Shown here: positions 11,693 through 55,825 of the stretch, one piece after another | How positions within the stretch are numbered: position 1 is the first letter of the stretch | Layout of the letters: each line of letters opens with the position of its first letter | DNA from: an uncultured Pseudobdellovibrionaceae bacterium | GTDB lineage: Bacteria; Bdellovibrionota; Bdellovibrionia; Bdellovibrionales; JAGQZY01 | Length of the DNA: 64,000 nt | Reading direction: 5' to 3' | NCBI GenBank assembly: GCA_964579625.1 | Contig: CAZOGU010000003.1 | Coordinates: 4,995 to 68,994 of the forward strand | Made by a program: the position numbers and the translations under genes | The notes under the pieces: generated by a model | The model's input: only the letters and a program-made list of their open reading frames with translations | Database searches by the model: none | What the model was told of the DNA's origin: nothing

Positions 11693-11856
11693 TAGGGCGT
11701 GTGGACAATTAAAAATCTGTCTATATGGACTTAAATTGATCTGACTCTTCGTTGCTCGTCGTCTTGTTAGCGCTTTGCTAGCAATTCCTCCTCGCGCCTC
11801 GATTCAAATCAATTTAAGTCCATTATAGACAGATTTTTAATTGTCCACACGCCCTA
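11693..11856. repeat. Foldback element copy 1: 48/49-bp arms around a ~67-nt core (MITE/ERIC-like)
   Basis: Left arm is TAGGGCGTGTGGACAATTAAAAATCTGTCTATATGGACTTAAATTGAT. The right arm is its reverse complement with one extra base. The core CTGACTCTTCGTTGCTCGTCGTCTTGTTAGCGCTTTGCTAGCAATTCCTCCTCGCGCCTCGATTCAA is shared with 15245-15405. Confidence 0.9.
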
Positions 11857-11866
11857 GGCCGCTGCG

Positions 11867-13762
11867 CTATCGAGGGGAGAGAATGACCTCGCGAGTCTCG
11901 TTCACGCGGACCGTGACGCGCGTCTCTTTGCTCGCACCAGAGATGGGATTCACTGATTTTAAAATGATTTCTTTGTCAGCGTCGACAACCAGCTTTTCGC
12001 CGTTTTTCAACTTCTGGGAGCCCATATAAGCTTCGCCGCCCACAATTCGAACAATGATCGCACCAGAGGGAATACTGGTCAGTTTGTAAGACACAAAATT
12101 ACCTGGCGGCAATCCATTATAACGACGTGTTTCACTGCGATAGCCGTTCATCGAGATAGACACAGTAAACGGCTTGTCGGTATTGACCTCAACCTCTGCT
12201 GGGGTCATTTGATTGGTGGGTTGAGAGTTCACATAAATATGAGCCCCAATTGGATCACTGGTGATTTTGAGTTTTGGAATTTTAGAAGCAAGCAAGGACT
12301 GCCCAGCAACGTTTTGATCTTGAAAGCAGCTCAATGGAACACCAAAAGATTTGAGCTGCAGGCAGGGCTTTGCAACAAGGTGAGGGCGAAACTCGTTGAT
12401 CGCGCCAAAACCACCAATCAAAATCGCAATCGCCAAAAAGAAAGCCCCAAACACCGAAGAAGCATTTGAGCTTGGAATATTTTGAATGCGAATATTGGGT
12501 TGCGATGGTCTGCTTGGAATGGATCTTTGTGAGACTGAACCTAAGCCTGAGTAGTTGGGAGCCTGACTGACGCTTAAATGCGACTGACTGATCTCGCCCA
12601 GCTGAGACATATTTGTCGTCAGTGTCGGTTGTCCGATTTTTTTAATTTCGAGATCTTCGAAGTTCATTTTTTCCGTGGTGTTTTTTGAGTAAGTGATCGA
12701 CTGCGTGACCACATCAGTGCGTGTATTTTTTTCGATGTACTGTTGAGAGTGGGACTGCTGTGGTGGCTCGACCACATGAGGAATATCAATTTTAGAATAG
12801 GCCACCTGGCGTTTACGTGCGTCGATGATTTCTTCGGAATAAGTTTCTTTAATAAACTCACTAAAATCCTGGCTCGAAAAATCCGGATTGTAACGATTTA
12901 GAAAACTCTGAAGATCTTTTTGCAGCTCGGCCGCGGTTTGGTAGCGCTGAGCTTTGTTGCGAGTGAGGGCTTTGTTAACAATTTTTTCGATTTCGATCGG
13001 GATATTGGGATCGATCTGGCGAAGACTTGGGATTTTGCAATCGCGAATCTTGCGTAAGGTGGTCATCTCGTTATTGCTCAAGAACAAGCGTTGCTCGCTG
13101 AGCATTTCCCAAATCATGATTCCCATGGCAAAAATATCTGTACGTCCATCCACCTCAAGTCCGTCGACTTGCTCGGGGCTCATGTAACCAAATTTTCCCT
13201 TGAGGGTTCCAACGCGGGTGTTTTCCTGCTGAGTTGTGGATTTGGCGATCCCAAAATCGATAATTTTAACTTCGCCTTCAAAACTCACCATCACGTTTTG
13301 CGGACTCATATCACGGTGGATAATGTTGAGTGGTTCTCCGGTGGTTGCATCGATAAGGCGGTGGGCGTGATCGAGGCCCGCGGCGATCATTTTTGAGGCG
13401 TAGACAATATGGCTGATCGAGAAGCGTTTGTGCAATTGTTTCAGACGATTGAGAATTTGTCGCAGGTTTTTTCCTTCGACATATTCCATAACGATGTAAA
13501 GCTGCTTGTTTTCGATCCCGAAGTCATGAATTCCCACCACGTTACTGTGCGAGAGATTGACGGCGATTTTGGCTTCGTCTTTAAACATGCGAATAAAATC
13601 TTCGGAGGCTGAATGCTGGGATAAAATTCTTTTAACGGCGACAAATTTTTGCAAACCTTCGGCGGCTAATTTTTTCGAAAGATAAATCTCGGCCATGCCA
13701 CCAGCCGCTAGCTTTTCGAGAAGGATGTAATTACCAAATCTTTCAAATTTCTCTTGTGCCAA
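11867..13762 (-). CDS. Hanks-type Ser/Thr protein kinase with a TM segment and a C-terminal PEGA-like domain
   Basis: 631 aa. Kinase motifs are GGMAEIY...VAVKRIL, HRDMSPQNVMV, DFGIAK and GYMSPEQ. TM segment is VFGAFFLAIAILIGGFGAI. The C-terminal ITSDPIGAHIYVNSQP... is PEGA-like. Confidence 0.9.
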   Translation of the reverse strand: MAQEKFERFGNYILLEKLAAGGMAEIYLSKKLAAEGLQKFVAVKRILSQHSASEDFIRMFKDEAKIAVNLSHSNVVGIHDFGIENKQLYIVMEYVEGKNLRQILNRLKQLHKRFSISHIVYASKMIAAGLDHAHRLIDATTGEPLNIIHRDMSPQNVMVSFEGEVKIIDFGIAKSTTQQENTRVGTLKGKFGYMSPEQVDGLEVDGRTDIFAMGIMIWEMLSEQRLFLSNNEMTTLRKIRDCKIPSLRQIDPNIPIEIEKIVNKALTRNKAQRYQTAAELQKDLQSFLNRYNPDFSSQDFSEFIKETYSEEIIDARKRQVAYSKIDIPHVVEPPQQSHSQQYIEKNTRTDVVTQSITYSKNTTEKMNFEDLEIKKIGQPTLTTNMSQLGEISQSHLSVSQAPNYSGLGSVSQRSIPSRPSQPNIRIQNIPSSNASSVFGAFFLAIAILIGGFGAINEFRPHLVAKPCLQLKSFGVPLSCFQDQNVAGQSLLASKIPKLKITSDPIGAHIYVNSQPTNQMTPAEVEVNTDKPFTVSISMNGYRSETRRYNGLPPGNFVSYKLTSIPSGAIIVRIVGGEAYMGSQKLKNGEKLVVDADKEIILKSVNPISGASKETRVTVRVNETREVILSPR

Positions 13763-13851
13763 AGGGAGTCCTCTTTTACTCTTTCTTTATCGGTTACGAA
13801 CCGGAAAAGAATGAGAAGTTTTAAACACTTCCACCAACAACTGGACCTTGG

Positions 13852-14460
13852 ATGAAGATGAAATGGATTGGGCTCACAGGCGGAATCGCGACCGGCAAAT
13901 CCACGGTTGCAAATTTATTCCAAAAAAAGGGAATTCCCGTTATTGATGCTGACGTCATTGCCCACAGGGCTTTGGTCGCGTCGAGTCCAGTTTTTGCGGA
14001 GTTGATCGCGACGTTTGGGCAAAATATTGTCGGGAGCGATGGAAATATCGATCGCAAACTCTTGGGTCAAAAGATTTTTCAGGACTCAAAAGCTCGTCTT
14101 CGTCTCGACAGTATCGTTCATCCTTTTGTACGAAACCAGGTGGCGATCGAAAAACAGAAGTTGATTCAAAATGGTACACCCATGGCGATTTATGATATTC
14201 CTCTCCTCTTCGAAAAAAAGATGCAAGGTGATTTCGATCTCGTCGTTGTTGTCAGTTGTGATTTAAAAATCCAAAAAGACCGATTGATGAAAAGAAATTC
14301 TCTCTCATCCCAAGAAGCCAACCAAAGAATGGCAGCACAACTTCCGCTCAGTGAAAAAACAAAACGCGCTGATCACGTGATCGATAACAGCGGCACGCTC
14401 GTCGACTTAGAAAAGCAAGTGGATACTTTTCTCAAAAGTGTTACGTACTCATTTCCTTAA
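13852..14460 (+). CDS. coaE: Dephospho-CoA kinase
   Basis: 202 aa with IGLTGGIATGKSTV P-loop, typical CoaE length and layout. Confidence 0.9.
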   Translation: MKMKWIGLTGGIATGKSTVANLFQKKGIPVIDADVIAHRALVASSPVFAELIATFGQNIVGSDGNIDRKLLGQKIFQDSKARLRLDSIVHPFVRNQVAIEKQKLIQNGTPMAIYDIPLLFEKKMQGDFDLVVVVSCDLKIQKDRLMKRNSLSSQEANQRMAAQLPLSEKTKRADHVIDNSGTLVDLEKQVDTFLKSVTYSFP

Positions 14461-14465
14461 GTGTT

Positions 14466-14587
14466 CAGCAGCAGCTACGGCATCAGAAGCGGTTTCAGTT
14501 CAGTTTGTGAGTTTAAGGGCTTAAATAATGAACTCATCACAGCTGAAAACTGAACTGAAACTGTTGCAGATACTGTGACTGCTGCTG
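14466..14587. repeat. Long imperfect hairpin between convergent genes
   Basis: CAGCAGCAG...TTTCAGTTCAGTT...TGTGAGTT pairs with AACTCATCACA...AACTGAACTGAAA...CTGCTGCTG. There are perfect blocks of 9 and 13 bp, but the 18-nt block between them pairs at only 10/18, and there is a bulge. Confidence 0.6.
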
Positions 14588-14602
14588 CCAACCTCTTCTC
14601 AC

Positions 14603-15223
14603 CTAGAATTGCAAAGTGTAACCGAGCAGTGCCTTGCCATACGCGCTTTCCAAGCCTTGATGGAAGCTGAGTTCAAAGCGCATGTTTTGTCTCTTGAGCA
14701 GTTGGAACTCCCAGCCGCCGGCTAAAAATAAATGATACGAATCCAAATCGACAAGCGGTCGCAGTTCGCGATCGGCATCAAGAATCAAACTGACTCCTCC
14801 ACCCCAGTAAAGGCGATAAAGATTTCGAGTCGGTAAACTGTGCGCAGCCAATTGAATCCAGCCAATATCTTCGTGAAGATCAACACCAATTTGAAATCGC
14901 GTCGTCGCAGTCATCCATGGGGCGGCATGAATTCCAACCCAACCGCTGTGATCTTCTTCGCTCACTTCGTAACCTCGACTGAGGGCGAGGGTTACGCTGG
15001 GGCGAGGTTCAAGGTGATAGGTTGGTGCTTTGGGTTGAGGGTGAATGCGTTGTTCTGGATCTAAGCCCGATTGCTCCATATCGACTTTTTTTGTCTCTGG
15101 GGGAGGTGTTTCTTGCTGAGGTGAGGGGGCCACATAAGTATGATCTGTCGGGGGTTTTGCATTCGCCACTGACAAACACAACCAAATGCCTAGGTTGCAA
15201 AGAAGAAAGATTTGTTTCGTCAT
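14603..15223 (-). CDS. Small secreted protein, probably an outer-membrane beta-barrel
   Basis: Start moved to MTKQIFLLCNLGIWLCLSVANA. The upstream 12 codons lie inside the foldback repeat. Signal peptide present. C-terminus ...LLGYTLQF has the terminal-Phe OMP signature. Confidence 0.6.
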   Translation of the reverse strand: MTKQIFLLCNLGIWLCLSVANAKPPTDHTYVAPSPQQETPPPETKKVDMEQSGLDPEQRIHPQPKAPTYHLEPRPSVTLALSRGYEVSEEDHSGWVGIHAAPWMTATTRFQIGVDLHEDIGWIQLAAHSLPTRNLYRLYWGGGVSLILDADRELRPLVDLDSYHLFLAGGWEFQLLKRQNMRFELSFHQGLESAYGKALLGYTLQF

Positions 15224-15244
15224 AAAATTATTATACTCTTTAAG

Positions 15245-15405
15245 AGGGCGTGTGGACAATTAAAAGTGTGTCTATATGTTTTAAAATTGATCTGACTCTT
15301 CGTTGCTCGTCGTCTTGTTAGCGCGTTGCTAGCAATTCCTCCTCGCGCCTCGATTCAGATCAATTTTAAAACATATAGACACACTTTTAATTATCCACAC
15401 GCCCT
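15245..15405. repeat. Foldback element copy 2: 51-bp arms with 1 mismatch, same core as copy 1
   Basis: Left arm is AGGGCGTGTGGACAATTAAAAGTGTGTCTATATGTTTTAAAATTGATCTGA, and the right arm is its reverse complement with one C/T difference. The core differs from copy 1 at only 2 positions. Same orientation as copy 1. Confidence 0.9.
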
Positions 15406-15447
15406 AGAACCGACTCAACGATAATCAGTTTGTTTCACAAGGATGTG

Positions 15448-16602
15448 ATGATGTTGCGCTTTGTTTTTATTATTTTTGCGGTTTCCTACTTTTTCGTTCG
15501 AACGTCGTTTGCTCAACAAGCGCTTTATTTTGGAATTCACCAGCAGTTTCAGTCGACACGTGCGCTGGGGATGGGAAATGCGCATGTGGCCGTGGCCGAT
15601 GACGAAAACGCGATTTTTTATAATCCGGCAGGAACACTTCGCTCCAAAGATCGTAAGATGAACTTTTTTTTAAAAGCAGGGGGCGATCCCGATATCAAAG
15701 ACTTTATGGATGAAATCAAAACGGCACAAGACGCCGCCGACTCTTCGCAGGCAATCGGTGATTTGATTGCATCGAAGTATGGACAGCACTATGCGCTTCG
15801 AGCGCCTTCATTGGGATTTATTTGGGCCACTCCAAAATGGTCACTCGCTTTAATTCCGGCTGACGTCACTGTCGAAATGGGTTTGCATCAAACAGTGGGG
15901 CCATCGATCAACCTAGTGGCTTTTCAAGATACAACTTTGGCTTACTCGCGCGCTTGGAATATGAAAAAAATGCGCTATGGACGACTGGATATGGGCGCAA
16001 CAGCCAAGGTGATTTATCGCGGCCACCTCGATAAAATTGTTAGCATCGTCGATATTCAAAACGACAATGTTATTAAAAAAGAAGATAGCAACGAAGGCAT
16101 GACGGCGGATTTGGACTTTGGAATGCTATGGCAGGCCCCCGAATACACTTCGGGATTTTTTAGTTATCTGCAACCGAGTCTTGGAATGAATGTGCGCAAC
16201 ATCGTCGACGCTGGATATTTTTCGAACCTTAAACTGTTTGCGGATGATAAAACAGGAGAGCCAGAAAAACTTCATCGTATGCTTGATGTTGGGACAGCGT
16301 TTAAGCTTCCAAACTGGTGGTTGTGGTCGTCAAAACTCGCGATTGATGTTCGCGATATTTTTCACCCCAATTGGACCTGGGAAAAGGGTTTGCACGCCGG
16401 TCTGGAGTTCAACTGGGAGATGTTTTCTTGGTGGAAAGGCGGCTGGCGCGTGGGGATGAATCAAATGTATTTTACCGCCGGCTTCACTGGGCAACTGTCC
16501 GTTTTTAAGCTCGATTTGGCCACTTTCGGCCGCGAAATCGGCACCTCATCAGCCAAAACAGAAGACCGCGTCTACATGCTCACAGCGAGTATCGACTTTT
16601 AG
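15448..16602 (+). CDS. PorV/FadL-like outer-membrane beta-barrel protein (paralogue 1 of 3)
   Basis: Start taken at ATG 15448, after AAGGA. Signal peptide present. N-terminal RALGMGNAHVAVADDENAIFYNPAG motif. C-terminal EDRVYMLTASIDF. Confidence 0.7.
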   Translation: MMLRFVFIIFAVSYFFVRTSFAQQALYFGIHQQFQSTRALGMGNAHVAVADDENAIFYNPAGTLRSKDRKMNFFLKAGGDPDIKDFMDEIKTAQDAADSSQAIGDLIASKYGQHYALRAPSLGFIWATPKWSLALIPADVTVEMGLHQTVGPSINLVAFQDTTLAYSRAWNMKKMRYGRLDMGATAKVIYRGHLDKIVSIVDIQNDNVIKKEDSNEGMTADLDFGMLWQAPEYTSGFFSYLQPSLGMNVRNIVDAGYFSNLKLFADDKTGEPEKLHRMLDVGTAFKLPNWWLWSSKLAIDVRDIFHPNWTWEKGLHAGLEFNWEMFSWWKGGWRVGMNQMYFTAGFTGQLSVFKLDLATFGREIGTSSAKTEDRVYMLTASIDF

Positions 16603-16770
16603 GGAATTCCTACACTGTGAGTTGGTCTCTTTAACGAATCCAAGCAAAGGAAGCTAAATCCTTCCTCTAAACTGGAAAATTTCTACAATTAAGTACATTT
16701 TGTTCCACAGAACTCCATTCATTGGATATGAACACGTCTTTCCGGGGTTGATTCTTCCTGAGGGGTGTTT

Positions 16771-18153
16771 ATGAAAATGGGTGCTTTTTTAATAGTCTTT
16801 TTTTCTTTGTTTCTTATGAAACCGATTGTCCACGCGGATGAAGTTCGTTACATCGCATATGATGAGCAATTTATTGCCGCAGTTGTTTCGTCGATTGAAT
16901 CCGCAAAAAAATCCATCGATATTGCGTACTTTATTTATGAACCCTGCCATCCTTCCACCAAGTTTGTGCGCCAACTTCTTGTTAAAAAAGCAAGTCAGGG
17001 AGTTCGAGTCCGTTTTTTGTTGGATGCCTTTATGTACAAGAAAAAAATGCGTCAAGCGATGGCACGGGACTTCGCAGATTCTGGTATTGAGTTTAAATTT
17101 TATAATCCCAAACCCCTCGTCAATCCGGCCGTGAATTTTCGAATGCATGTCAAATTGCTTTTGGTCGATAAAAAATCGTACATCTCTGGGGGAAGAAATA
17201 TTGCCGACGAATATTTTGGACTTTCTCCCGTTTACAATTTTATAGATGCGGATGTGTGGGTGACAGGGCGTTCTGCAACGCAAGTCTCAGCGTCTTTTGA
17301 AGAGTTGTGGAACGATCGATGGTCGCGATCAGTGAAGCTCAAAAAGGGCCCGTCCCTTGCTGAGCTATGCCAACAGAGCGAAGCCCCTCAAGACGAAAAG
17401 TGGACGAAACGGGTTCACAAATTTATGGGGCAAACAGCCAGCAAAGTGACACCTCGGATGACCAAACATTCGTGTCAGGCGCGTTTTGTCAGTGATGATC
17501 CGCAATTTTATAAATATCCAAGTCAAGCAAACTCAGAAGATAAGAACACGCCCATTCTTGGCGGGAAAAGATTACAAGCGAAGCGAGCCACTGTCGAATT
17601 TTTAGATTTTATTGGTCAAACACAAGAGAGCTTAGAACTCGAAAACTGGTCGTACATGCCACTCGATTTTATCAACCAGGAGCTGCGAAATTTACGACAA
17701 CAAAACATTCCCATTTTAGTGATGACAAACATGGATGCCGACAACAACGGCGTGATTAAAAATGCCGAGGATTTTTTAAATCATCGGTTTGCCAAACGCG
17801 ATACAGAAGACTCACAAATTGTGATTCAGTTGGCCTCACGCGGGCATCTTTCGGATCGTCATGCCCTCACACCTAAAAAAAGCTACTTTCGTTTGCATCA
17901 AAAGACGGGGCTTCGCGATCATCGCGATATCATGGTGGGGTCTTTTAATATCGATCCACGCTCTTATCACACCAATCTTGAGTCCATAGTGATTTTTGAG
18001 GGGTGCCGATCTTTTGCCAAGGAGTACGCGCAGCATGCCTCGGACTTGGTGCGGACTTATAACAAAGATTATGAGACGGGTTATCACAAAACCCCTCCAC
18101 CTCCAAAACTCGGGACCATTTTATTCTCCTTCTTTGGCTTCGACTTTTTGTGA
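16771..18153 (+). CDS. Secreted phospholipase-D superfamily protein (two HKD motifs)
   Basis: Start at ATG 16771, after GAGGGG. Signal peptide present. HKD motifs are HVKLLLVD..GGRNI and HQKTGLRD..GSFNIDPRS. Confidence 0.85.
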   Translation: MKMGAFLIVFFSLFLMKPIVHADEVRYIAYDEQFIAAVVSSIESAKKSIDIAYFIYEPCHPSTKFVRQLLVKKASQGVRVRFLLDAFMYKKKMRQAMARDFADSGIEFKFYNPKPLVNPAVNFRMHVKLLLVDKKSYISGGRNIADEYFGLSPVYNFIDADVWVTGRSATQVSASFEELWNDRWSRSVKLKKGPSLAELCQQSEAPQDEKWTKRVHKFMGQTASKVTPRMTKHSCQARFVSDDPQFYKYPSQANSEDKNTPILGGKRLQAKRATVEFLDFIGQTQESLELENWSYMPLDFINQELRNLRQQNIPILVMTNMDADNNGVIKNAEDFLNHRFAKRDTEDSQIVIQLASRGHLSDRHALTPKKSYFRLHQKTGLRDHRDIMVGSFNIDPRSYHTNLESIVIFEGCRSFAKEYAQHASDLVRTYNKDYETGYHKTPPPPKLGTILFSFFGFDFL

Positions 18154-18170
18154 TCGGCAAATGAGCTCCC

Positions 18171-18276
18171 CCGAAAAGGTGCCAAGCCTTTTCCGGCAAT
18201 ATATACGATTTGGGCCCAATTTGGGTTATATCTAAGTCCTTGTTTGTGCCCAAGTCGTATATATTGCCGGAAAAGG
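18171..18276. repeat. Palindromic element: 29-bp stem (one G-T) plus a third upstream GAAAAGG copy
   Basis: CCTTTTCCGGCAATATATACGATTTGGGC (18187-18215) pairs with GCCCAAGTCGTATATATTGCCGGAAAAGG (18248-18276). CCGAAAAGG at 18171 can also pair with 18187-18196. Confidence 0.8.
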
Positions 18277-18378
18277 GACATGGTACCTAATTATCGAGCA
18301 GGACTTTGATTGACGAACTCCCCTGCCTTGTGGGATACAAACCCTTCAAATTAATGTGTATTTAATGAAAGGTACATA

Positions 18379-19011
18379 ATGGCAGCAACAAAAAGACGTG
18401 CTCGTTTCAGAATTCAAAGACGCCTTGGGGTTGAACTTCCCGGACTTGGAAAAGCCGGAGCCCTTGAGAGACGTCCTTATCCTCCTGGACAGCATGGAAA
18501 CAAGCGTAAAAAGTTTTCGAACTACGCCCTTCAGCTCGAAGAGAAACAAAAAGTCATGTTTCACTACGGGCTTCGCGAAAAACAACTGCGTCGCTTTATT
18601 CGTGACGCACAAAAAGGAAGCGCTGATAAAAACTGGATCAGTCAGCTCGCAGGTCGTTTAGAACTGCGAATTGATAATTTTGTTTTTAGAGCCGGCTTCG
18701 CTCCAAGTATCATGTCCGCCCGTCAAATGGTGAGTCATGGTCATGTTTTCGTGAATGGAAAAAAGGTGAGCGTTGGTTCGGTGGTATTAAAAGTCGGTGA
18801 CGTTGTGACGTTGAGAGAAGACTCTTATCAACATCAGTGTTACCTCAAAGCAAAACAAGGTCCACGCCTTGAACTTCCAGATTACATCGAAAAATCGGAA
18901 GTTTCAGGCAAAGAAGTGGCGAAAGTGAAGATGGTTCCTGGAACAGAATTCTTCCCATTCCCATTCTCTGCAAACCTATTTGCGGAATACTACTCACTTC
19001 GTAGCGTTTAA
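18379..19011 (+). CDS. rpsD: 30S ribosomal protein S4
   Basis: 210 aa with RFRIQRRLG...PGQHG...LQLEEKQK..YGLREKQLRRF and a C-terminal S4 RNA-binding domain. Monocistronic. Confidence 0.95.
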   Translation: MAATKRRARFRIQRRLGVELPGLGKAGALERRPYPPGQHGNKRKKFSNYALQLEEKQKVMFHYGLREKQLRRFIRDAQKGSADKNWISQLAGRLELRIDNFVFRAGFAPSIMSARQMVSHGHVFVNGKKVSVGSVVLKVGDVVTLREDSYQHQCYLKAKQGPRLELPDYIEKSEVSGKEVAKVKMVPGTEFFPFPFSANLFAEYYSLRSV

Positions 19012-19035
19012 TTACGATCACGAAAATGAAAAACG

Positions 19036-19067
19036 AAAAAAGCCCGGCAAAAGCTGGGCTTTTTTTT
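19036..19067. terminator. Bidirectional intrinsic terminator (rpsD / convergent lipoprotein gene)
   Basis: AAAAA AGCCCGG caaaag CTGGGCT TTTTTTT. 7-bp stem (one G-U) flanked by A-run and T-run. Confidence 0.75.
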
Positions 19068-19075
19068 GCAAACTC

Positions 19076-19106
19076 GTCATCCCTCACTTCGCTCAGCTCA
19101 GATGAC
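19076..19106 (+). repeat. Short hairpin carrying the recurrent TTCGCT..GCTCA..GATGAC motif
   Basis: GTCATC cctcacTTCGCTCAGCTCA GATGAC. Shares CTCGTCATC, TTCGCT, GCTCA and GATGAC with the apex of the 22904-23030 palindrome. Confidence 0.6.
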
Positions 19107-19123
19107 AAGGATTCGCCTATTCG

Positions 19124-19792
19124 TTAGTTGTTATTGTTTTTCAACTGATTGATAAAGGCTTCACCTACAGTGGCGGGGTCGGAGCTGCCTGCGGTGGCAG
19201 TTGCGAAGTTGTCGCAGATTTCTGTACCGTAAAATGAGCCGCCCTGAACGCAGGCGGTGGTTTGCATACTCAAAACCGAATTTCCAATATCTGCGAGATC
19301 ATCAGCTGGAAGTGTGGATGGATCGCCTGTCCCAATCCAAGTGGCCAGATCGCCACCAGCTACAGCATCAAGAGCGGCTTGAATTTGTGTGGCAAGCTGT
19401 GCAGATTCGGCAAGGAGTTTCAAATTGCGTGAGCCACTCAATGTGCAATAGTTGACGGCCGTGGCTGCTTCGGTGGAATTGTTAAATTGAAAATCAGTAT
19501 AAAACTGCACAGACGGATCTGTAGTGCTCGAATCATTGTTGTCGTCGAGATTCTGTGTCGCCTGGATGATGGTGCTGGTTGTAATCCCTGCTCGTAAAAA
19601 TTCACCTGAACATCTGAGGACGTATGACTGGGGTGTTGTGATTCCTGCGATTTTAGCTAGACATATGTCGGCCGAGACACCATCCGTTGCGCGATCCATG
19701 CAAAGTTGAGCCGAATAAATTTGATCATCTTCTTTGTCTTCGCAGGCCGAAAAACACATCACGCACAAGGCAAACCACACGACTCTTTTCAC
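19124..19792 (-). CDS. Cys-rich lipoprotein (L1), paralogue of 20976-21770
   Basis: Lipobox MKRVVWFALCVMCFSAC. Motifs shared with L2 are Y..RC...F, a PxDD...IG block and scattered Cys. Confidence 0.7.
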   Translation of the reverse strand: MKRVVWFALCVMCFSACEDKEDDQIYSAQLCMDRATDGVSADICLAKIAGITTPQSYVLRCSGEFLRAGITTSTIIQATQNLDDNNDSSTTDPSVQFYTDFQFNNSTEAATAVNYCTLSGSRNLKLLAESAQLATQIQAALDAVAGGDLATWIGTGDPSTLPADDLADIGNSVLSMQTTACVQGGSFYGTEICDNFATATAGSSDPATVGEAFINQLKNNNN

Positions 19793-19921
19793 GGTCCCAC
19801 TCCTTCACAAGTATTGAGATTTTATCGTAGCTGATAAAGGCAGGAATTGCACTGATCCAACGTCTAATTTTCTCTCTGTGAAACGCTTTTTTAAACAACA
19901 TAAGAGATACTAAAATGAGAC

Positions 19922-20968
19922 ATGAAGTCATTGATTCTCCTCCTTATTTTAACTTTGGCTCTATCGGTGCGCGCTGATTTTTATCAAGGCATTCGGCAGA
20001 TGGGAATGGGTGGCGCTGCCGTTGCGGTTGTTAACGACGAAACCTCGTTGCTTTTAAATCCGATTGGCTTGGGTCGTTTGCGCGAACCTTATGTGACAAT
20101 CGTTGATCCCGAAGTGACAACCAATCAACAAAGTATTAGTAGCGTGCAAAGCTTATTGTTGGATTCTACTGACCTCAAAGAAGTCTATCCAGAACTGGCG
20201 AGTAACTTGGATCAAAGATATTTTGTGCGCACACAACTTTTTCCTTCCTACGCGGATCGACACTATGGTTTTGGTGCGCTCATCAAAAACGAAATGACGG
20301 CAACGCGTTCAAGTACCACCCAATTTTTGGATCTGAATTATGTGAGTGATTGGGCCGCAGTGGCGGGGCTGAATAAAAGTTTTTATGGCGGAGTGATCAA
20401 AGTGGGAGCCGCAGGACGTTGGGTCGATCGCGCTCAGTACGTAGGAGTTCTCGATCCAAACACGCAAGGTCTTGATTTGCAAAGACTGGCTGTGCAAGGT
20501 GCAGGTTTAGCGGCTGATGTGGGTTTAAGTCTTTCGTCGCCAACAGACTGGTTGCCAACACTTAGTGTGATGGCGAAAGACATTGGTGACACTTCGTTTA
20601 CTTTGAGCGATGGCTTACGGGATTACCTAACGACCGCCGATCCTACTAAAGTTCCCATGACTATGGATGTGGCGGTGGCTTTGTTTCCAATCTGGAACAA
20701 TTATACGCGTGGCACATTTACGATCGAATTTGATGACGTTCTCGAAGAGGGAGACACTGTTCGTAAGCTTCACGCCGGGATGGAAGTGAATCTTGCCGAT
20801 CGTTGGTTTTTTCGTAGTGGTTACAATCGCGGCTATTTAACCGGTGGTCTTGAGTGGACGATGCCTTTTGTTCAAGTTCAGTTTGCCTATTACGGGGAAG
20901 AGATTGGTACGGATGAAAATCCACTCAAAGACGAGCGGTATGCGATGAAGCTGGTGTTTCGTTTTTAG
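19922..20968 (+). CDS. PorV/FadL-like outer-membrane beta-barrel protein (paralogue 2)
   Basis: Signal peptide MKSLILLLILTLALSVRA. N-terminal RQMGMGGAAVAVVNDETSLLLNPIGL. C-terminal DERYAMKLVFRF. Confidence 0.7.
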   Translation: MKSLILLLILTLALSVRADFYQGIRQMGMGGAAVAVVNDETSLLLNPIGLGRLREPYVTIVDPEVTTNQQSISSVQSLLLDSTDLKEVYPELASNLDQRYFVRTQLFPSYADRHYGFGALIKNEMTATRSSTTQFLDLNYVSDWAAVAGLNKSFYGGVIKVGAAGRWVDRAQYVGVLDPNTQGLDLQRLAVQGAGLAADVGLSLSSPTDWLPTLSVMAKDIGDTSFTLSDGLRDYLTTADPTKVPMTMDVAVALFPIWNNYTRGTFTIEFDDVLEEGDTVRKLHAGMEVNLADRWFFRSGYNRGYLTGGLEWTMPFVQVQFAYYGEEIGTDENPLKDERYAMKLVFRF

Positions 20969-20975
20969 GAGTTTT

Positions 20976-21770
20976 ATGAAAAAGTTGATTCTTCTTTTTT
21001 TATTGTTGGGTTGTAGCAAAAATATTCTTGAAGAGACGGCAAAGCCAAACACACCGGAAGCCGTGTATTATCGCGCGAAGCTGGCGATGAATGATCAGGA
21101 CTACGACGCCGCTATTCTTCTTTTGCAATCGCTGGGGCCGACATATCTTTCGCGTCGTGATGTGGCCCTTGTTTATGCGTCTGCTTATTCGGGTCGCTGC
21201 GGATTAAACTTCGTGAATCTAATCACTCAGCTGGATACAGTTGGGACAGCCGCAAATTTGTTCTTATTTTTGATGGATATTTTTCCCGATGGATCGGACT
21301 CCAAAATTGGTGATTGTCAGTTTGCAGAGACGACGTTGAACACATTTGGAGCCTACACAGCACGCACAGCAGACGAAAATATTTTGATGGGACTCTCGAG
21401 CATTACTAAAGTTGGAACTATTTTAAATCGTTACGCAGATACAGACAATAACGGAGCTGCAGACGCCACTTTTGATCATTGTGATCTCACAGATTTTCCA
21501 GATGATGCCGTTCGCGAGATTGGAACAGGAATCGCTAATGCGATACTGAGTATTTCGCAAGTGAGTTCATCGATCTCGTCTGACACACTCACTGAAATCA
21601 CGTCTCTTTGTGCTCTCAATGTGAATCTCAATTCCTTTTGCACGACGACAGACAAGTCTACCTATACAGCACTTGAAGTGAGTTTTTTAAGATCCTTAGT
21701 GGCCTCCACCAGTGATGGAATCGGTGCCGCAACTTGCCCAGGGAGTTTCATCACTTGCATCTGTCCTTAA
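20976..21770 (+). CDS. Cys-rich lipoprotein (L2), paralogue of 19124-19792
   Basis: AGGAG RBS and lipobox LLFLLLGCSKN. Motifs shared with L1 include YSGRCGLNF and FPDDAVREIG. Confidence 0.75.
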   Translation: MKKLILLFLLLGCSKNILEETAKPNTPEAVYYRAKLAMNDQDYDAAILLLQSLGPTYLSRRDVALVYASAYSGRCGLNFVNLITQLDTVGTAANLFLFLMDIFPDGSDSKIGDCQFAETTLNTFGAYTARTADENILMGLSSITKVGTILNRYADTDNNGAADATFDHCDLTDFPDDAVREIGTGIANAILSISQVSSSISSDTLTEITSLCALNVNLNSFCTTTDKSTYTALEVSFLRSLVASTSDGIGAATCPGSFITCICP

Positions 21771-22903
21771 CCACACTCTTTATTTGTATTTTCTTTTTTG
21801 CATTTCATCGCGCGAGCGCGGAGGAACTGCCAGAGTATGGTCTTTCCGTGAAAGGTCTCGGAATGGGGAATGCTTACACCGGACACGCAAAGGGGCATGA
21901 CGCTCTCTTTTACAACCCCGCTGCATTTGCAAATCTGACGGGATTTCAGATGCGTTTGATGGGGCTTGGCGTGGGACTAAATGGAATTGATGTCTACGAT
22001 GAATACTCTGATCTTTTTGATAATTCCAATAACGTTGGAGACACACTCAATGCGCTGTATGGACAACCGATATGGGCTCGTGTGGATTATCAATTCTCAA
22101 TGAGTTCGGGACCATTTATTGTTGGTGCTTATTCGCGAGCCAATGTGGGCTTTACGCTTCTTAATCCAGCTCTACCGACTCTTGATGCTAATTATTACGC
22201 CGATTATGTTTTTTTTGGCGGAGCGGGTGTATCGATTGTGCCACAAATTTTTGATGTGGGTTTTGTTGTAAAAAGAATCACACGTTTTGCAGGCGGTGGG
22301 GATATTTCCGCGTCAACGCTGGCTTTTTTAGACTCGCAAGCCATCGAAGATGCTGCCAATCAAACAGGCGTTGCTTTTGGCGCTGATTTTGGAGCAAAGC
22401 TCACGTTGCCAGGCGAATGGCATCCCTCTGCGGCCTTTGCATGGCAAGATATTGGAAACACATCCTTTTCTTTCAGTGCAACGAATCCCGCACCAGCGAC
22501 GATTGAAGATCGAATGAACATTGCTCTTGGATTGGAGCGAGAATTTCTTGGACTGTTTACACTTCGTCCAGCCATTGAATACAAAATGATAAATAGCTCA
22601 TCAACAGAGGTGCAAGTCGGAAAAAAACTTCACGCGGGTCTCGAACTCGAACTTCCTGCAATCACTCTGCGTGGAGGTTTTTACCAGGGCTACTACACGT
22701 ACGGTGCGTCCTTTGATTTTTGGGTTTTCCAAATGGATTTTGCAACTTATGCTGTAGAACTGGGCGAATACGTGGGCCAGCACGAAGACCGTCGCTATAT
22801 GTTTCAGCTGACAATGGACTTCGGTATCGACGGAGTCTCTGGCGATTGGTTCAATTTCTCAAAATCCCGTCGCACCAAACGCGGTATCAAACAACGCCGT
22901 TAA
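21734..22903 (+). CDS. PorV/FadL-like outer-membrane beta-barrel protein (paralogue 3); start uncertain
   Basis: KGLGMGNAYTGHAKGHDALFYNPAAF and EDRRYMFQLTMDF, followed by a basic tail. The TTG start at 21734 overlaps the upstream gene. An in-frame TTG about 24 nt downstream is equally plausible. Confidence 0.7.
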   Translation: MPREFHHLHLSLTTLFICIFFFAFHRASAEELPEYGLSVKGLGMGNAYTGHAKGHDALFYNPAAFANLTGFQMRLMGLGVGLNGIDVYDEYSDLFDNSNNVGDTLNALYGQPIWARVDYQFSMSSGPFIVGAYSRANVGFTLLNPALPTLDANYYADYVFFGGAGVSIVPQIFDVGFVVKRITRFAGGGDISASTLAFLDSQAIEDAANQTGVAFGADFGAKLTLPGEWHPSAAFAWQDIGNTSFSFSATNPAPATIEDRMNIALGLEREFLGLFTLRPAIEYKMINSSSTEVQVGKKLHAGLELELPAITLRGGFYQGYYTYGASFDFWVFQMDFATYAVELGEYVGQHEDRRYMFQLTMDFGIDGVSGDWFNFSKSRRTKRGIKQRR

Positions 22904-23030
22904 AAAAGGTACGCCGTTCCTTTTCCTTAAGCTTTGTGTCATTTCTTTTTCTCGTCATCTTTCGCTTTGCTCAAGATGACGAGAAAAAGAAATGACACAA
23001 AGCTTAAGGAAAAGGAACGGCGTACCTTTT
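22904..23030. repeat. Perfect palindrome: 57-bp stem, 13-nt loop
   Basis: 22904-22960 is the exact reverse complement of 22974-23030. The loop is TTCGCTTTGCTCA. It starts at the base after the stop codon of the upstream gene. Confidence 0.95.
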
Positions 23031-23055
23031 GTGTTGGCTGGGTTATATTGGGCGA

Positions 23056-30281: not shown

Positions 30282-30411
30282 GTCGAAGAAGGGGCCGTCT
30301 TTAAAACTCTCTTTTTTGGACCTCTCGCCAACAGGATGTTGGATCGTGCGAGCAGAGCCCCGGACGGGCGTGTCCAAAAAAGAGAGTTTTAAAGACGGCC
30401 CCTTCTTCGAC
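30282..30411. repeat. Perfect palindrome: 40-bp stem enclosing a 50-nt structured loop
   Basis: 30282-30321 (GTCGAAGAAGGGGCCGTCTTTAAAACTCTCTTTTTTGGAC) is the exact reverse complement of 30372-30411. The loop contains CCAACA-gga-TGTTGG and GCCC-cggac-GGGC mini-hairpins. Confidence 0.95.
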
Positions 30412-45133: not shown

Positions 45134-45162
45134 GCTTTCTGTGACCGAAATTTAAAAACCCA

Positions 45163-46489: not shown

Positions 46490-46536
46490 ATCTTTATTGT
46501 CCCACCCATTGAATCCGTGTATTTTCGGTGGTTCCC

Positions 46537-49799: not shown

Positions 49800-49844
49800 C
49801 GATCCTTTGACAAGGTTCTGACCCCTAACTATGCTGTTTTTTTA

Positions 49845-50792: not shown

Positions 50793-51855
50793 AGGTTATT
50801 TAATTCTCGAAGATGGCAAGACTTACCAAGGTGAATGGCTCGGTGGTCAATCCCGTGCAGGAGAAGTGATTTTTAACACCTCTCATAACGGCTACGAGGA
50901 GATTGCCACAGATCCTTCTTATTACGGGCAGATCATGGTGATGTGTGCACCGATGCAAGGCAACTACGGCGTGGATAAAGCTTTTTGGGAATCACAAAAT
51001 TTATGGATCGAAGGTTTTGTGGCACTCGATGTGTACAAGCATGATGATTCGTGGATTCGTCGCCTCAGTGATGCAGGAATTCCTCTTCTCAATGGAATCG
51101 ACACACGCGATTTGGTTCTGCACTTGCGTGACAAAGGCACAATGCTTGGGGCGCTCGTCAAAGCCGCCACTCTCGAAATGGCACAAGCTGAAGCAAAAAA
51201 ACTGATCGATAAGCACCTCAAGCTCGACAAAGACTGGGTTCATCATGTGTCCACGAAGCAGACCAAGGTTCTCAGCGGTGCCTCTTCCTCTGGCCCGCGT
51301 GTTGCGGTTTTGGATTATGGCTGTAAACAAAATATCATTCGCGAACTTTTAAAGCGCTGTCGGGAAGTGGCGATATTTCCATCTCGCTCCACTTACGAAG
51401 ACATTCAAAAATGGAATCCCGATGGACTTCTACTTTCCAACGGCCCTGGCGATCCCGCAGAGGTGCAAAAGACTGTGGACGTGGTGCAAAAGTTTTTAGG
51501 ACAAAAAGTAATCTTCGGTATTTGCATGGGTCATCAGATTTTGGCTCGTGCTTTGGGAGCTAAAACCTACCGTCTTAAGTTTGGTCATCACGGTGCCAAT
51601 CATCCTGTGAAAGATTTGCGAACCAACGAAATTTACGTAACCAGCCAAAACCATGGTTATGCCATTGAAGATCAATCGCTGCCTTCCGATGTGATCGTGA
51701 GTCATAAAAACCTCAACGATCAAACCATTTCAGGAATTTATTATAAAAATAAAAAATGCTTCAGTGTTCAGTTTCACCCCGAGTGTTATCCGGGGCCACG
51801 GGATGCCGGGGTTTTATTTGATGAGTACATCGATTGGATTCAACATGCATTATGA
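50785..51855 (+). CDS. carA: Carbamoyl-phosphate synthase small (glutaminase) subunit
   Basis: MDKGYLILEDGKTYQG, GICMGHQIL (catalytic Cys) and QFHPE. Confidence 0.93.
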   Translation: MDKGYLILEDGKTYQGEWLGGQSRAGEVIFNTSHNGYEEIATDPSYYGQIMVMCAPMQGNYGVDKAFWESQNLWIEGFVALDVYKHDDSWIRRLSDAGIPLLNGIDTRDLVLHLRDKGTMLGALVKAATLEMAQAEAKKLIDKHLKLDKDWVHHVSTKQTKVLSGASSSGPRVAVLDYGCKQNIIRELLKRCREVAIFPSRSTYEDIQKWNPDGLLLSNGPGDPAEVQKTVDVVQKFLGQKVIFGICMGHQILARALGAKTYRLKFGHHGANHPVKDLRTNEIYVTSQNHGYAIEDQSLPSDVIVSHKNLNDQTISGIYYKNKKCFSVQFHPECYPGPRDAGVLFDEYIDWIQHAL

Positions 51856-52489
51856 TCAATTCCTAGAAAAACTCACCGAGTATTTTTCCTCCTCCAAATA
51901 TCAAAAAGAGGTGGTGAAGGCCAAGGAGCAATTTTTTGGCGACATCGGCGTCAGCGAAACAGACACCTCTGATTTTGAACGTCACCTGACACTTTTTTTT
52001 GATTGGTATTTACTCACGCGACCGCTCCAGGGAACACTTTTAACTCCCGCCAAGATGGCACTCAATCTCGAAGGTTTCGAAATGTCGCAAGACAGTCGAC
52101 CGTTTTACGAGGGTTTGGCCGGCGCACGATTTGCACTTTTTGAATATATCAAATCCAAGGGGCAGGATCACTACGCCAAAAACTTATTTACCGGTGAAAA
52201 AGTGGTCGTTAAAAAATCCTCGGTTCATTTTTTGATTCCCAAGGGCACCATTTTTAGCACTCACTATGTGAGTGACAAACAAAATAACTTTTTTACCAGT
52301 GGACTTGTTTGTCATCCGCTCGAAACGCGCAAGTTTATTTTAGAACAAGCCAAAAAAGCTCAAAAGGTTTCTTACGAGGAGCAAGTCGCTTTGATTTACA
52401 GTTTAACGCGAATGTATTTTAAATTGGATCGTTATCCGCATGTAACGCATCAACAGATTTACAGCCTGAATAGCGCTGTGAGGTTTTAA
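51845..52489 (+). CDS. Hypothetical protein inserted between carA and carB
   Basis: 214-aa ORF starting [10 protein letters not shown]. It overlaps the carA stop by 11 nt and shares a TAATG junction with carB. No recognisable motif. Confidence 0.6.
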
Positions 52490-55400
52490 TGGCACTGAAC
52501 CCAAAGTACAAAAAAGTTTTAATTCTTGGTAGTGGGCCCATTGTGATTGGCCAAGCCTGTGAGTTCGACTACTCGGGAACACAGGCCTGCAAAGCTTTGC
52601 GCAGTTTGGGAATCGAAGTGGTTTTAATCAATTCAAATCCAGCCACAATCATGACAGACCCCGATGTGGCCAACAAAGTCTACATCGAGCCGCTGAAAGT
52701 TGCTTTTGTCGAAAAAATTCTCGAGAAAGAAAAGCCAGACGCCCTGATTCCCACCTTGGGTGGGCAGACCGCTCTCAACTTAGGGCTCGAATTATCGTCA
52801 GCAGGTGTTCTAAAGCGTTTAGGCATCGAGATGATCGGTGCCACCGCCGAAGTGATTCGCGCGGCTGAAGATCGCGAACAGTTTCGTCAAATTTTAAAAA
52901 ATCTAGGTGCTAAATATCCAAAGAGTGAAATGGTGCGAAACCTCAAAGAAGGTCTCGACGCTGCAAAAGTGATCGGCTTTCCAATTATTCTACGTCCCAA
53001 TTACACGCTGGGCGGCGGTGGTGGTGGTATTGCCTATTCTTTGGAAGAGTACGAACGCATGATCGCGAAAGCTCTCAGCGAAAGTCCTACGTCCGAAGTT
53101 TTGGTCGAAGAGAGTATTCTCGGCTGGAAAGAATTTGAGCTCGAAGTGATGCGCGATAGTAAGGGCGTTTTTGTCACCATCTGCAGTATCGAAAATCTCG
53201 ATCCATGCGGAGTGCATACGGGCGATAGTATTACAATTGCACCCCAACAAACTCTCTCCGAGCGAGCGTATCAAGATATGCGCGACGAAGCTCGAAAAAT
53301 TCTCGATGCCGTGGGGCTCGAGTGCGGCGGCGCAAACATTCAGTTTGCCGTGCATCCAGACAGCGGGAAAAGAGTGGTTATCGAAATGAATCCTCGAGTG
53401 AGTCGTTCCTCGGCACTGGCGAGCAAGGCCACGGGATTTCCTATTGCCAAAATTGCAGCGATGTTGGCGGTGGGTTTTACATTGGAAGAGATCACAAACG
53501 ACGTTACAAAATCGACGCCCTCTTGTTACGAGCCGGCTCTCGACTATGTTGTTACCAAAATTCCACGTTTTGCTTTCGAAAAGTTTAGTGGTTCAAAAGA
53601 TCTCCTCTCTACGCAAATGAAGAGCGTCGGTGAGGTGATGAGTATTGGTCGAACGTTTAAGGAATCCCTGCAAAAAGCCATCGTCTCCATGGAGATGCAT
53701 GCCGGCCTCGAAGAGGTTAATTTTCTTCCCGAGAAATTATCTTATCCCAATTCGCAAAGACTCTTCCATCTTGCGCAAGCCTTCCGTCAGGGCTTAACTA
53801 TCGATCAAGTTTACGAACTCACTCAGATCAATCGCTGGTTTCTCCATCAGATCCATGATTTGATCGATCTCGAAAAACAAATTATTCAAAAAAATTCTTT
53901 GGATGCAGATTTTTTACTCGTTCTTAAAAAGAATGGCTTTTCGGACTTACGAATTGCTCAACTTCTTAAAACGTCGGAACTTGCAATTCGCGAAAAACGC
54001 CAGACATGGAAAATCCATCCGGGTTTTTACCAAGTGGATACTTGCGCTGGAGAATTTGAATCCAAAACGCCTTATTACTACTCAACGTATTGGACCACTC
54101 ATCGTCCACAAATAAAAGCCGCAAAAAGTCCCATCATGATTTTGGGAAGCGGACCCAATCGCATTGGCCAAGGGATTGAGTTTGATTACTGTTGCGTACG
54201 AGGTGTTAAAGCCTTTCAAAAAAATGGTTATCCGGTCGCCATGGTGAATTCCAACCCCGAAACTGTTTCAACAGATTATGACACCAGTGACTTCTTGTTC
54301 TTTGAACCTTTAGTGCCTGAATATCTTCTCGAGATTGCTTCGCTCATCCAGCCGCAAGGTGTGGTTGTACAGCTCGGCGGTCAAACTCCAATCAATGTGG
54401 CAAAAGACTTACAAGCAGCGGGATTGCATTTGATGGGATCATCGCTGAACACGATTGATTTGGCAGAAGATCGTTCGCGCTTTAAAAAAGTGTGTGACGA
54501 ACTGGGCTTGCAAGTGCCACAGGCTGGTGTGGCCTCGGATGTATCTATGGCGCTCAAAGTGGCGCAAGAAATTGGCTATCCCATTATTTGTCGTCCAAGT
54601 TATGTTCTCGGTGGACGTCGCATGGAAGTGATCGAAAACAATGAGGAGCTCGCCGAGTACTTTCAAAAACATGCGCCCGTGATTTCGCCCTCCGCTCCGT
54701 GTTTTATGGATCAATTTCTCGAAGGAGCTCTCGAAGTCGATGTTGATGTTGTTCGTGGAGTGGATTGGTGTTTTGTGGGCGGTGTGATTGAACACATCGA
54801 AGCCGCTGGGGTTCACTCGGGTGACAGTATGGGTGTCATTCCTCCGCAGCGTCTCAAAGGTGCTGTTCTTGATAGCATCGAAGAGGTTTGCAAAAAATTA
54901 GCGAACAAATTAGAAGTTCTCGGTCATATGAATGCGCAGCTCGCACTCAAAGACAATGTGATCTACGTTCTTGAAGCCAATCCGCGATGCTCGCGCACAG
55001 TCCCGTTTGTGGCCAAAGCAGCTCGTTTGCCGCTTGTGGATCTTGGCGTCCAAGCTGTATTGGGTGTGAAGAAAAGCGAAATCAATCTCGAAGCCTACAA
55101 TTACAGAACGATCCAACAAGTGTGTGTGAAGGGCGTGGTATTCCCTTTTAATAAGTTTACAGATTCCGATTCGATTTTAGGGCCGGAGATGAAATCCACC
55201 GGTGAGAGCATGGGTCGCGGTGCTGACTACGGCGAAGCGCTGTGGAAAGCCTTTATTTCGAGCCATCATCGGCTCTCGCAAAGTGGGGAGATTTTTCTTT
55301 CCCTGCGTGAAAAAGACAAAGAGGCGTTGTTGCCTGTGATTCAAGGTCTTCAGAGCTTGGGCTACACCTTTTCGGCAACGCTTGGCACTGCTAAATTTTT

Positions 55401-55662
55401 ATTCGAAAAAGGCATTGATTGCATCCCAGTTAAAAAAGTTCACGAAGGTCGCCCGCATTGCGTGGATCGCATTCGCTCGGGAAAAGTAGCCATGGTGATC
55501 AATACAACATCGGGCCGTCTCTCGATCGATGCCAGCTTTCAAATCCGTCGCAGTTGCACAGACTACGGAGTTCCGTGCATCACAGAGGATCATGCCGCCG
55601 AAGCGTTGTTGTTGGCTTTACGAAAATTGCACACCGGTCAATTCGGAGTCATTGCAATCTAG
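52489..55662 (+). CDS. carB: Carbamoyl-phosphate synthase large subunit
   Basis: 1057 aa with duplicated ATP-grasp halves ([19 protein letters not shown] and [18 protein letters not shown]) and a C-terminal MGS-like domain. Confidence 0.97.
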
Positions 55663-55825
55663 TATTCCAACCAGTTATTCTTTTCCCCTTGAACTCAGTC
55701 TTTTTTCCAAAATTCAATTTGCTCCTCCTTGAATTGGCTTTGGGCCAGTCCTTCGTCGTCACGCATTGAATTTTGGAAAAAATCCTATCGTTCAAGGGGA
55801 AAAGAATAACTGGTTGGAATACTAG
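55659..55825. repeat. Nested palindrome: 36-bp outer stem, 18-bp inner stem, 46-nt apical region
   Basis: 55659-55694 is the exact reverse complement of 55790-55825. 55701-55718 is the exact reverse complement of 55765-55782. The carB TAG stop (55660-55662) lies inside the left arm. Confidence 0.95.

Follow-up and report, generated by a model that had tools for sequence, protein, structure and literature searches.

The closest described counterparts of the elements considered here are short non-coding repeats of other bacteria. REPINs, in which repetitive extragenic palindromic (REP) sequences form hairpins as doublets, have conserved ends and a variable spacer; compensatory changes are common in them and have been attributed to selection for the hairpin, and singlet remnants occur (PMC3116915). 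In pneumococci, transposable elements of the miniature inverted-repeat type (MITEs) insert into one another and form mosaics in intergenic DNA (PMC10969869). Here we describe seven long palindromes, the foldbacks E1–E7 (Table 1), in a stretch of 64,000 nucleotides from an uncultured Pseudobdellovibrionaceae bacterium (contig CAZOGU010000003.1, positions 4,995 to 68,994), hereafter called the window. We consider it likely that all seven are non-autonomous foldback mobile elements of a MITE- or REPIN-like kind, and that they represent about three modular families in an uncultured lineage of Bdellovibrionales. The best-supported view is that the families are new, that the kind of element is known, and that membership among MITEs or REPINs is supported in part, for a lineage that is poorly studied. 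Their unusual features are very long perfect stems, apical nesting and conserved cores.

A repeat search of the window recovered each of the seven palindromes at the position given in an earlier note on this DNA. The foldbacks are 106–167 nt long, with inverted arms of 33–58 nt and main stems that are paired at 94–100%, except for E2 at 80%, and their predicted folding energies range from -56 to -101 kcal/mol. A separate scan by seed and extension (arms of at least 25 nt, loops of at most 300 nt) counted seven inverted repeats in the real window and zero in each of 100 windows simulated with a Markov-1 model. The placement that had been described relative to stop codons, and in two divergent gaps, holds against the ends of the open reading frames (ORFs). 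Among ORFs of at least 100 amino acids, contact with an element occurs solely at over-extended ends or at the carB stop.

Table 1. Positions of the foldbacks, their parts and one neighbouring gene in the window
Feature	Positions	Strand	Description	Arms and pairing	Setting
E1	11693–11856		composite foldback, 'GGGCG' family, written TA[GGGCGTGTGGACAATTAAAA...]TA	outer 33 nt, 100%; inner 23 nt, 91%	end 10 nt from kinase stop
E1 outer arms	11693–11725 and 11824–11856
E1 inner arms	11725–11747 and 11801–11823
E1 apical core	11748–11800
E2	14466–14587		degenerate foldback	41 nt, 80%	convergent gap; start 5 nt past coaE stop
E3	15245–15405		second 'GGGCG' copy	54 nt, 96%	divergent promoter gap
E3 arms	15245–15298 and 15352–15405
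E3 core	15299–15351
E4	18174–18290		inverted doublet of unit M	33 nt, 94%	start 17 nt past PLD stop; just upstream of rpsD promoter
E4 unit M	18174–18219
E4 loop	18220–18243
E4 unit M'	18244–18290
E5	22904–23030		58-bp perfect palindrome	58 nt, 100%; loop 11 nt	begins immediately 3' of stop codon
E5 outer 22 nt (unit Ma)	22904–22925 and 23009–23030
E6	30282–30411		foldback with C1-family core	40 nt, 100%	divergent gap
E6 arms	30282–30321 and 30372–30411
E6 core (50 nt)	30322–30371
E6 putative inner unit U	about 30309–30384		CTCTTTTTTGGAC...GTCCAAAAAAGAG
E7	55659–55825		composite foldback in TA of carB stop	outer 36 nt, 100%; inner 18 nt, 100%	contains carB stop (55660–55662)
E7 outer arms	55659–55694 and 55790–55825
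E7 inner arms	55701–55718 and 55765–55782		behind asymmetric bubble
E7 core	55719–55764
E7 duplicated TA	55660–55661 and 55823–55824
PLD-family gene	16771–18153	+	outside foldback		between PorV-like gene and E4

Insertion is seen most directly for E7 and E3, where contigs of relatives (numbered with L) retain the empty site. E7 has no counterpart in L067 and L068, at about 83% DNA identity, in which the gap between carB and the ABC gene measures 38 nt, compared with 201 nt in the window. The empty site reads ...GTCATTGCTATC-TA-AGGCTTGATTTCAAC, i.e., ...ATC-TA-AGGCTTGATTTC..., and the filled site ...GTCATTGCAATC-TA-[GTATTCC...GGAATAC]-TA-GGACTTGATTTCAAG. The insertion adds 163 nt net; the flanks ATCTA and GGMCTTGATTTC are retained, and the arms do not resemble the flank. 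The carB stop has been rebuilt from the TA and the first G of E7. The element is missing in L058 and L059 as well. For E3, the empty site in L069 (about 81% identity) is ...CTCTTTAA-TA-GTGCTGACTCAACGA, also written TTTAA-TA-GTGCTGAC, and the filled site ...CTCTTTAA-GA-[GGGCGTG...CACGCCC]-TA-GAACCGACTCAACGA; again, the arms lack similarity to the flanks of the empty site. A single TA at both empty sites is thus found on either side of the filled ones (as GA and TA for E3). Because TA is self-complementary, a duplication of 2 bp is indistinguishable from one of 3 bp (TAG) or 4 bp (CTAG) at either site.

The remaining loci vary between strains and species in the same manner. E3 is missing also in L007 and L008. 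E1 is missing in L008 and L010, where the orthologous gap is about 45–50 nt as opposed to 213 nt in the window, and both E1 and E2 are missing from a relative at about 71% identity. E2 is missing in L008, and L007 has two other foldbacks at its position. E4 is absent, together with the neighbouring gene of the phospholipase D (PLD) family, from the 97%-identical strain L002; orthologous doublets exist in L069 and, in the opposite arrangement, in L010, and L008 has a single unit. At the site of E5, the palindromes of L010 and L008 are different ones that have the AAAGGTACG ends in common with it. The gap corresponding to that of E6 is empty in L064 and holds different foldbacks or repeats in L065 and L062. 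In L062 (2975–3090) two tandem units of about 50 nt (TTCCCCGCCGCAACGAGCTYCGCTCGTAAACGAGGACCGAAGGTC) with small hairpins, and no foldback, are found. The gaps whose foldbacks differ by species are those after coaE, upstream of rpsD, after the FadL-like gene, upstream of a 455-aa gene, and after rarA, and they are either hot spots or old insertions with turned-over contents.

As judged from sequence, the seven elements appear to fall into about three modular families, which relatives have in common at other loci. The modules are GGGCGTGTGGACAATTAAAA; GTATTCCAACCAGTTATTC; the units M and Ma; and GGTCTTTTTTAGGAC with the C1 core. Family F1 (GGGCGTGTGG/TA, 'GGGCG') has E1 and E3 as members, F2 is a REP-like AAAGGTAC...CCTTTT unit that occurs singly or as an inverted doublet (E4 and E5), and F3 is an apical core of about 55 nt bounded by TTTTAGGAC/GTCCTAAAA, present in E6 and probably in E7. 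On the best-supported reading F1 and E7 behave like TA-targeting MITEs, with Correia elements as the nearest analogue, F2 like REP or REPIN units, and F3 like a small unit riding in the apex of other palindromes. The earlier note regarded five of the palindromes as sequence-unique and without a common family, which is true within the window only: E4 and E5 share the REP-like module, and E6 and probably E7 share a core family. It was right about the pair at 11.7 and 15.3 kb, since E1 and E3 are 90% identical over the full length of 160 nt. Of the explanations it offered, low-copy foldback MITEs are favoured by the clean TA empty sites of E7 and E3, by polymorphism between strains and species, and by modules at unrelated loci.

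F1 is represented in the window by its two copies. At the E3 position, L010 has a coreless short form of 65 nt, TA-GAGGGGATGCGGTGAATTAAAAAACTGTCTA..., nested in a pair of M-like half units. The terminus of E1 and E3 gave no match in an exact scan of representative genomes and three in a scan of metagenomes, of which solely the one in L004 looks related; those in L005 and L006 look like chance. L004, a relative at 76% identity, has the 24-nt E1 terminus TAGGGCGTGTGGACAATTAAAAAG at 106–129, directly after a stop codon; it lacks a partner arm in the vicinity and may be half of an element that has decayed. The word GGGCGTGATGG occurs a second time 130 nt downstream. As for the Correia elements (NEMIS) of Neisseria and the RUP repeats, F1 and E7 are non-coding, 100–160 nt long and gene-adjacent, with long inverted ends and a TA on both sides (in part PMC10969869). 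Long and short forms exist in both cases, E1/E3 corresponding to the long form and the 65-nt element of L010 to the short one, and both can carry promoter-like hexamers, which are found here at the terminus of E3. Unlike Correia elements, where the inverted ends are 26 bp, the arms here are paired along almost the whole element; furthermore, there is no sequence similarity, the lineage is another one, and no match to an IHF site is seen by eye. At the outward terminus of E3 (15230–15259, minus strand), a -35-like TTGTCC stands 18 nt upstream of TATAAT. That TATAAT precedes the minus-strand gene 14603–15220 and is conserved among relatives, and in a scan of 20 kb this was the best promoter-like match (10/12).

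In F2, unit M (AGGTACCAAGTACCTTTTCCGGCAATATAYRCGATYTGRGC) and unit Ma (AAAGGTACSSCGWWCCTTTT, or AAAAGGTACGCCGTTCCTTTT at the ends of E5) each contain a mini-hairpin AAAAGG..CCTTTT. M is arranged as M-loop-M' in E4 and in L069, as M'-loop-M in L010, and as a single unit in L008. Ma forms the outer ends of E5, is present as singlets in L007 (10751 and 14594), and, in L062/L063, makes up a doublet elsewhere, at a locus where the window has no gap. The mini-hairpin pattern occurs 19 times in 440 kb against about five expected, and true M/Ma units number only about nine. The thread CTTTTCC/GGAAAAG, previously thought to connect three elements, is real for E4 and E5 as part of the REP-like module. 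The likeness to REPINs is considerable: the units are short and extragenic with a mini-hairpin, they occur as singlets or as inverted doublets folding into a hairpin of about 100–130 nt, and E4 and E5 have conserved ends, a variable spacer, compensated changes in the arms, persistence at orthologous sites and singlet remnants. The units are longer here (about 22–45 nt), the stems reach 58 perfect base pairs, and the window has no REP-associated tyrosine transposase (RAYT). The TA target of E1, E3 and E7 is a further difference; to our knowledge it is not a REPIN trait.

The C1 core of F3 is about 50–57 nt long and usually bounded by (T)nAGGAC/GTCCT(A)n. It is found in E6, L007a, L007b, L058, L059 and L064b, that is, at four different loci in four genomes, and the core family of E6 has at least six copies in three other genomes, while about 61 kb of one relative contains three of the C1 cores. 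In L064a the core is a longer version and carries an additional insertion at the apex. A covariance model of C1 matches E6 together with L007a, L007b, L058 and L059, and gave five strong matches in 450 kb and a weak one in another 83 kb. The model's consensus structure is a weak one (12 pairs, four with compensated change), and we do not claim an RNA fold. No copy of C1 outside a foldback was found in about 530 kb. Either orientation of the core is found, and L058 and L059 differ in this at one and the same locus; the outer arms around the cores are largely unrelated. The inner unit of E7 starts with GTCTTTTTT, and GCTCCTCCTTGA and TCACGC are common to its core and that of L058; from these similarities, the unit probably belongs to F3. 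A similar arrangement is seen in L021, where two foldbacks have a common 63-nt core and unrelated arms.

One homologous core for all elements was considered and rejected, as pairwise tests were strong only for E1 with E3, L007a with L007b, and L021a with L021b, and weak for E6 with L007. Likewise, the core of E1/E3 is linked to C1 by the short word CTTGTTAGCGC alone, which is not significant. Paired foldbacks that have near-identical cores in opposite orientation and unrelated arms were noted in L007 (7695–8008), L021 (7501–8444) and L064 (16149–16689), with a spacing of 27 nt, about 640 nt and 170 nt, respectively. This recurring arrangement is unexplained by simple independent insertion. In L069 (2812–2860), just past the rpsD terminator, a short hairpin TGCCATT...AATGGCA surrounds GCGAGCAGAGC; this is the word of the C1 core that is best conserved, and the hairpin may be what is left of a core.

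Several of the elements are composites in which one hairpin sits in the apex of another. In E1, the outer arms of F1, of the coreless type found in L010, are combined with an inner unit (TGGAC...GTCCA) and a core. E7 is built, from the outside in, of its outer arms, a bubble that is asymmetric (TCAGTC/TCCTATC), a second pair of arms and a core; in L064a the core itself carries an insertion at its apex. The simplest reading is that one hairpin element has repeatedly inserted into the loop of another, with selection retaining an insertion only where the hairpin that received it stays intact. Given the 90% identity of E1 and E3 and the empty site of E7, whole composites must also have been inserted as single units. 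Small repeat families nested in one another are known as BOX, RUP and SPRITE from pneumococci (PMC10969869). The difference is that nesting is apical here, hairpin in hairpin, so that the composite stays one long palindrome and can be mobilised.

The arms change in concert. E1 and E3 differ at six positions of the arms, and each of the six changes has its mirror image in the opposite arm; in the 53-nt core they differ at one position. At the E4 locus the arm variants are alike in both arms, namely ATATACGAYTTGGGC in the window, ATATGCGATCTGAGC in L069 and ATACGCGATYTGA in L010. In L007b, a tandem duplication in one arm has an exact copy in the other. These mirrored variants establish that the arms evolve together. 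The cause may be selection for the hairpin, acting on a single-stranded intermediate as has been proposed for REPINs, or templated repair within the strand.

These observations would fit the following scheme. A transposase encoded elsewhere in the genome would insert a short non-coding element with long inverted ends at a TA dinucleotide, the presumed target of E7, E3 and E1, which ends up on both sides as is seen for E7 and E3. In a tightly packed genome, the TA of TAA and TAG stops is expected to be a frequent usable target, which would be why elements abut or contain stop codons. New units would come to lie in the loop at the apex of palindromes already present, whether because that loop is preferred or because the hairpin stays intact only when the insertion is there. 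A nested composite could then move as one unit by means of its outer ends; both the nesting and the unit-wise insertion are seen in E1/E3 and E7. By-products for the host might include termination, processing by RNase III, stabilisation of mRNA and donation of promoters.

A number of points weigh against this scheme. Searches of 38 window ORFs with NCBIfam and Pfam found no transposase, RAYT, integrase or reverse transcriptase, and no protein of the Y1_Tnp type was among the ORFs scanned. Copy numbers in the sampled sequence are low, one to three per family and genome fragment. Nothing related to E2 or to the outer arms of E7 was found among the sequences compared; E2 is treated as an orphan and is possibly a decayed element. 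Flanking TAs alone cannot be told apart from a longer palindrome, TA being self-complementary, and the left TA of E3 reads GA. Of the 21 stems, ten are 100% perfect in spite of the age of some sites, which is not predicted by plain neutral decay of MITEs. Finally, foldbacks occur in several species at the positions of E4, E5 and E3, after rarA, and at E6; such recurrence could reflect function or hot spots and not random insertion.

The nesting and the perfect arms could also point to a mode of transposition or repair that has not been described, in which the core of about 55 nt targets the single-stranded apex of extruded hairpins and active copying from arm to arm keeps stems of up to 58 bp perfect over long periods, i.e., a replicator of hairpins within hairpins that has a dedicated enzyme in Bdellovibrionales. 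This core (CTCTCG...CGAGCAGAG...CGT, with (T)nAGGAC/GTCCT(A)n as its bounds) is asymmetric and internally structured, and it is conserved between loci as well as between species. The alternative is that ordinary nested MITEs together with survivorship bias give the same picture, and we regard the novel mode as unlikely.

A second explanation would take the foldbacks as host-selected elements that act at the RNA level and do not move, such as long bidirectional terminators, stabilisers of the 3'-untranslated region or substrates of RNase III. In its favour, stop codons are at or close to five of the seven; E5 and its counterparts at orthologous sites have an A-tract and a T-tract (AAAAGGTACG...CGTACCTTTT) on their flanks; the E5 site of L007 holds only a mini-hairpin that resembles a terminator; foldbacks recur at the same gaps in several species; and compensated change keeps the stems paired. 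However, E3 and E6 are located in divergent promoter gaps where no transcript ends, E1, E2, E3 and E7 are absent in relatives that have the same genes, and the same unit is found next to unrelated genes. The real terminators of the organism, at about 19036, 43744 and 45163, have GC-rich stems of 7–10 bp followed by T5–T8; an intrinsic-terminator scan flags none of the seven elements, and TTTT stands at the end of E5 alone. As the earlier note had maintained, the long palindromes form a class apart from ordinary terminators. Its structured-RNA option is disfavoured. Over 21 stems with 880 arm positions there are 832 Watson–Crick pairs, 11 G:T, 12 A:C and 25 other mismatches, and since G:T pairs are not in excess, selection on a single RNA strand is disfavoured; the unbiased orientation of the cores argues against strand-specific RNA genes. 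With Rfam 15 there was no match at the gathering score, and relaxed searches returned only sub-threshold models of plant miRNA precursors on both strands, a generic hairpin signal. No tRNA or tmRNA was found. Overall, a role in RNA as the reason for these elements is improbable.

We attach the same low probability to an origin without transposition, whereby template switching during replication or snap-back synthesis at small hairpins already present would give inverted duplications of the adjacent DNA that are then kept perfect. Some features do speak for local copying. Unit M is single in L008 and has its inverted duplicate on the right in the window and in L069 or on the left in L010, the duplication in L007b is mirrored exactly in the partner arm, concerted arms need some copying from arm to arm, and the stems are unusually perfect. 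Local arm-to-arm copying therefore probably contributes to doublet growth and to the perfection of the arms. It cannot be the origin of most elements: the arms of E7 and E3 are unlike the flanks of their empty sites, E1 and E3 have the same 160-nt sequence at two loci, and the C1 cores, like the Ma units, reappear in other genomes and at loci that are unrelated.

Host sites that extrude as cruciforms or bind a protein (a nucleoid protein, gyrase or a recombinase, as suggested for bacterial interspersed mosaic elements), with the apical core as the bound motif, are less probable still. Such sites would agree with symmetry at the DNA level, with positions that recur across species, and with a core of about 55 nt that is conserved between species whose arms differ. 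Against this, no candidate binding protein was identified, the cores are as few as the covariance model indicates, the elements are dispensable in close relatives, and the families are unrelated in sequence. Production of the palindromes by short-read metagenome assemblers can practically be dismissed, despite public contigs that break at palindrome sites and a contig end in L008 (14429–14691) where 126-nt perfect arms run back into coding sequence, an assembler turn-around at a real hairpin, since the elements are contig-internal with the correct syntenic flanks on both sides, similar ones come from different pipelines and samples (metagenome-assembled genomes at NCBI, JGI and Logan), and the independent Logan contig L001 reproduces window positions 15363–22933 at 100%, with all of E4 included.

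In line with foldbacks that are real, Logan contigs from three runs (L001, L003, L056 and L057) terminate in the arms of E3, E5 and E7 or next to E4, because true inverted repeats longer than k are expected to break an assembly there. In practice, foldbacks fragment and locally corrupt short-read metagenome-assembled genomes of this clade exactly at the palindrome sites.

Foldbacks with arms of at least 25 nt number seven in the 64-kb window, four in about 61 kb of GCA_041736155.1, four in about 38 kb of GCA_043757265.1, and three in about 39 kb of a JGI contig. The density in the window and these three close relatives is about one element per 9–15 kb. Among more distant relatives, the sole positive is L021, with two in 11 kb, and none were found in about 230 kb from the others. 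The foldbacks are restricted to one clade, in which their density would mean hundreds per genome. Predators of the Bdellovibrio type are generally regarded as poor in mobile DNA, and a literature search on palindromic or mobile elements in Bdellovibrio or Bdellovibrionota returned nothing relevant. The foldbacks rebuild stop codons, sit in promoters and mark differences at the strain level, and their concerted arms at orthologous sites offer a natural system for the tolerance and upkeep of long perfect palindromes in bacteria. The possibility that the arms are spacers against foreign DNA was rejected, as BLAST of all elements against phage and plasmid collections gave no match; scans of viral contigs with the E1/E3 terminus and unit M likewise gave none.

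A search with ribosomal protein S4 assigns the window to uncultured metagenome-assembled genomes of Bdellovibrionales/Pseudobdellovibrionaceae. The genes of the window are housekeeping genes in synteny with relatives, among them dcp, a Ser/Thr kinase gene, coaE, PorV-like genes, rpsD, addAB, purH, metK, lepA, pyrB, carAB and pilMNOPQ. The PLD-family gene encodes 462 amino acids with two phospholipase D/nuclease domains and is a strain-specific accessory gene (within 16609–18170) in a housekeeping stretch that is conserved otherwise. It is missing not only from L002 but from L069, L007, L008, L010, L012 and every other relative. E4 follows a stop codon because this gene was inserted there, and since L069 has E4 without the gene, the gene is a later, separate insertion. 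An imperfect palindrome right after the stop of an accessory gene, with conserved structure and variable sequence, resembles the attC site of an integron cassette. Here, by contrast, core sites R'' and R', the asymmetry of extrahelical bases and an integrase are all lacking: no R'' (RYYYAAC) or R' (GTTRRRY) occurs within 25 nt of either end of any element on either strand, and the window has no integrase. Together with the occurrence of E4 without the PLD gene in L069, this led us to reject a cassette.

Downstream of E4, the region upstream of rpsD (18300–18378; TTGACG...TGTGGGATACAAACCCTTC...) is strongly conserved in L002, L007, L008, L010 and L069, and may comprise the promoter and an autoregulatory leader for S4. 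The DNA just 5' of it turns over between relatives.

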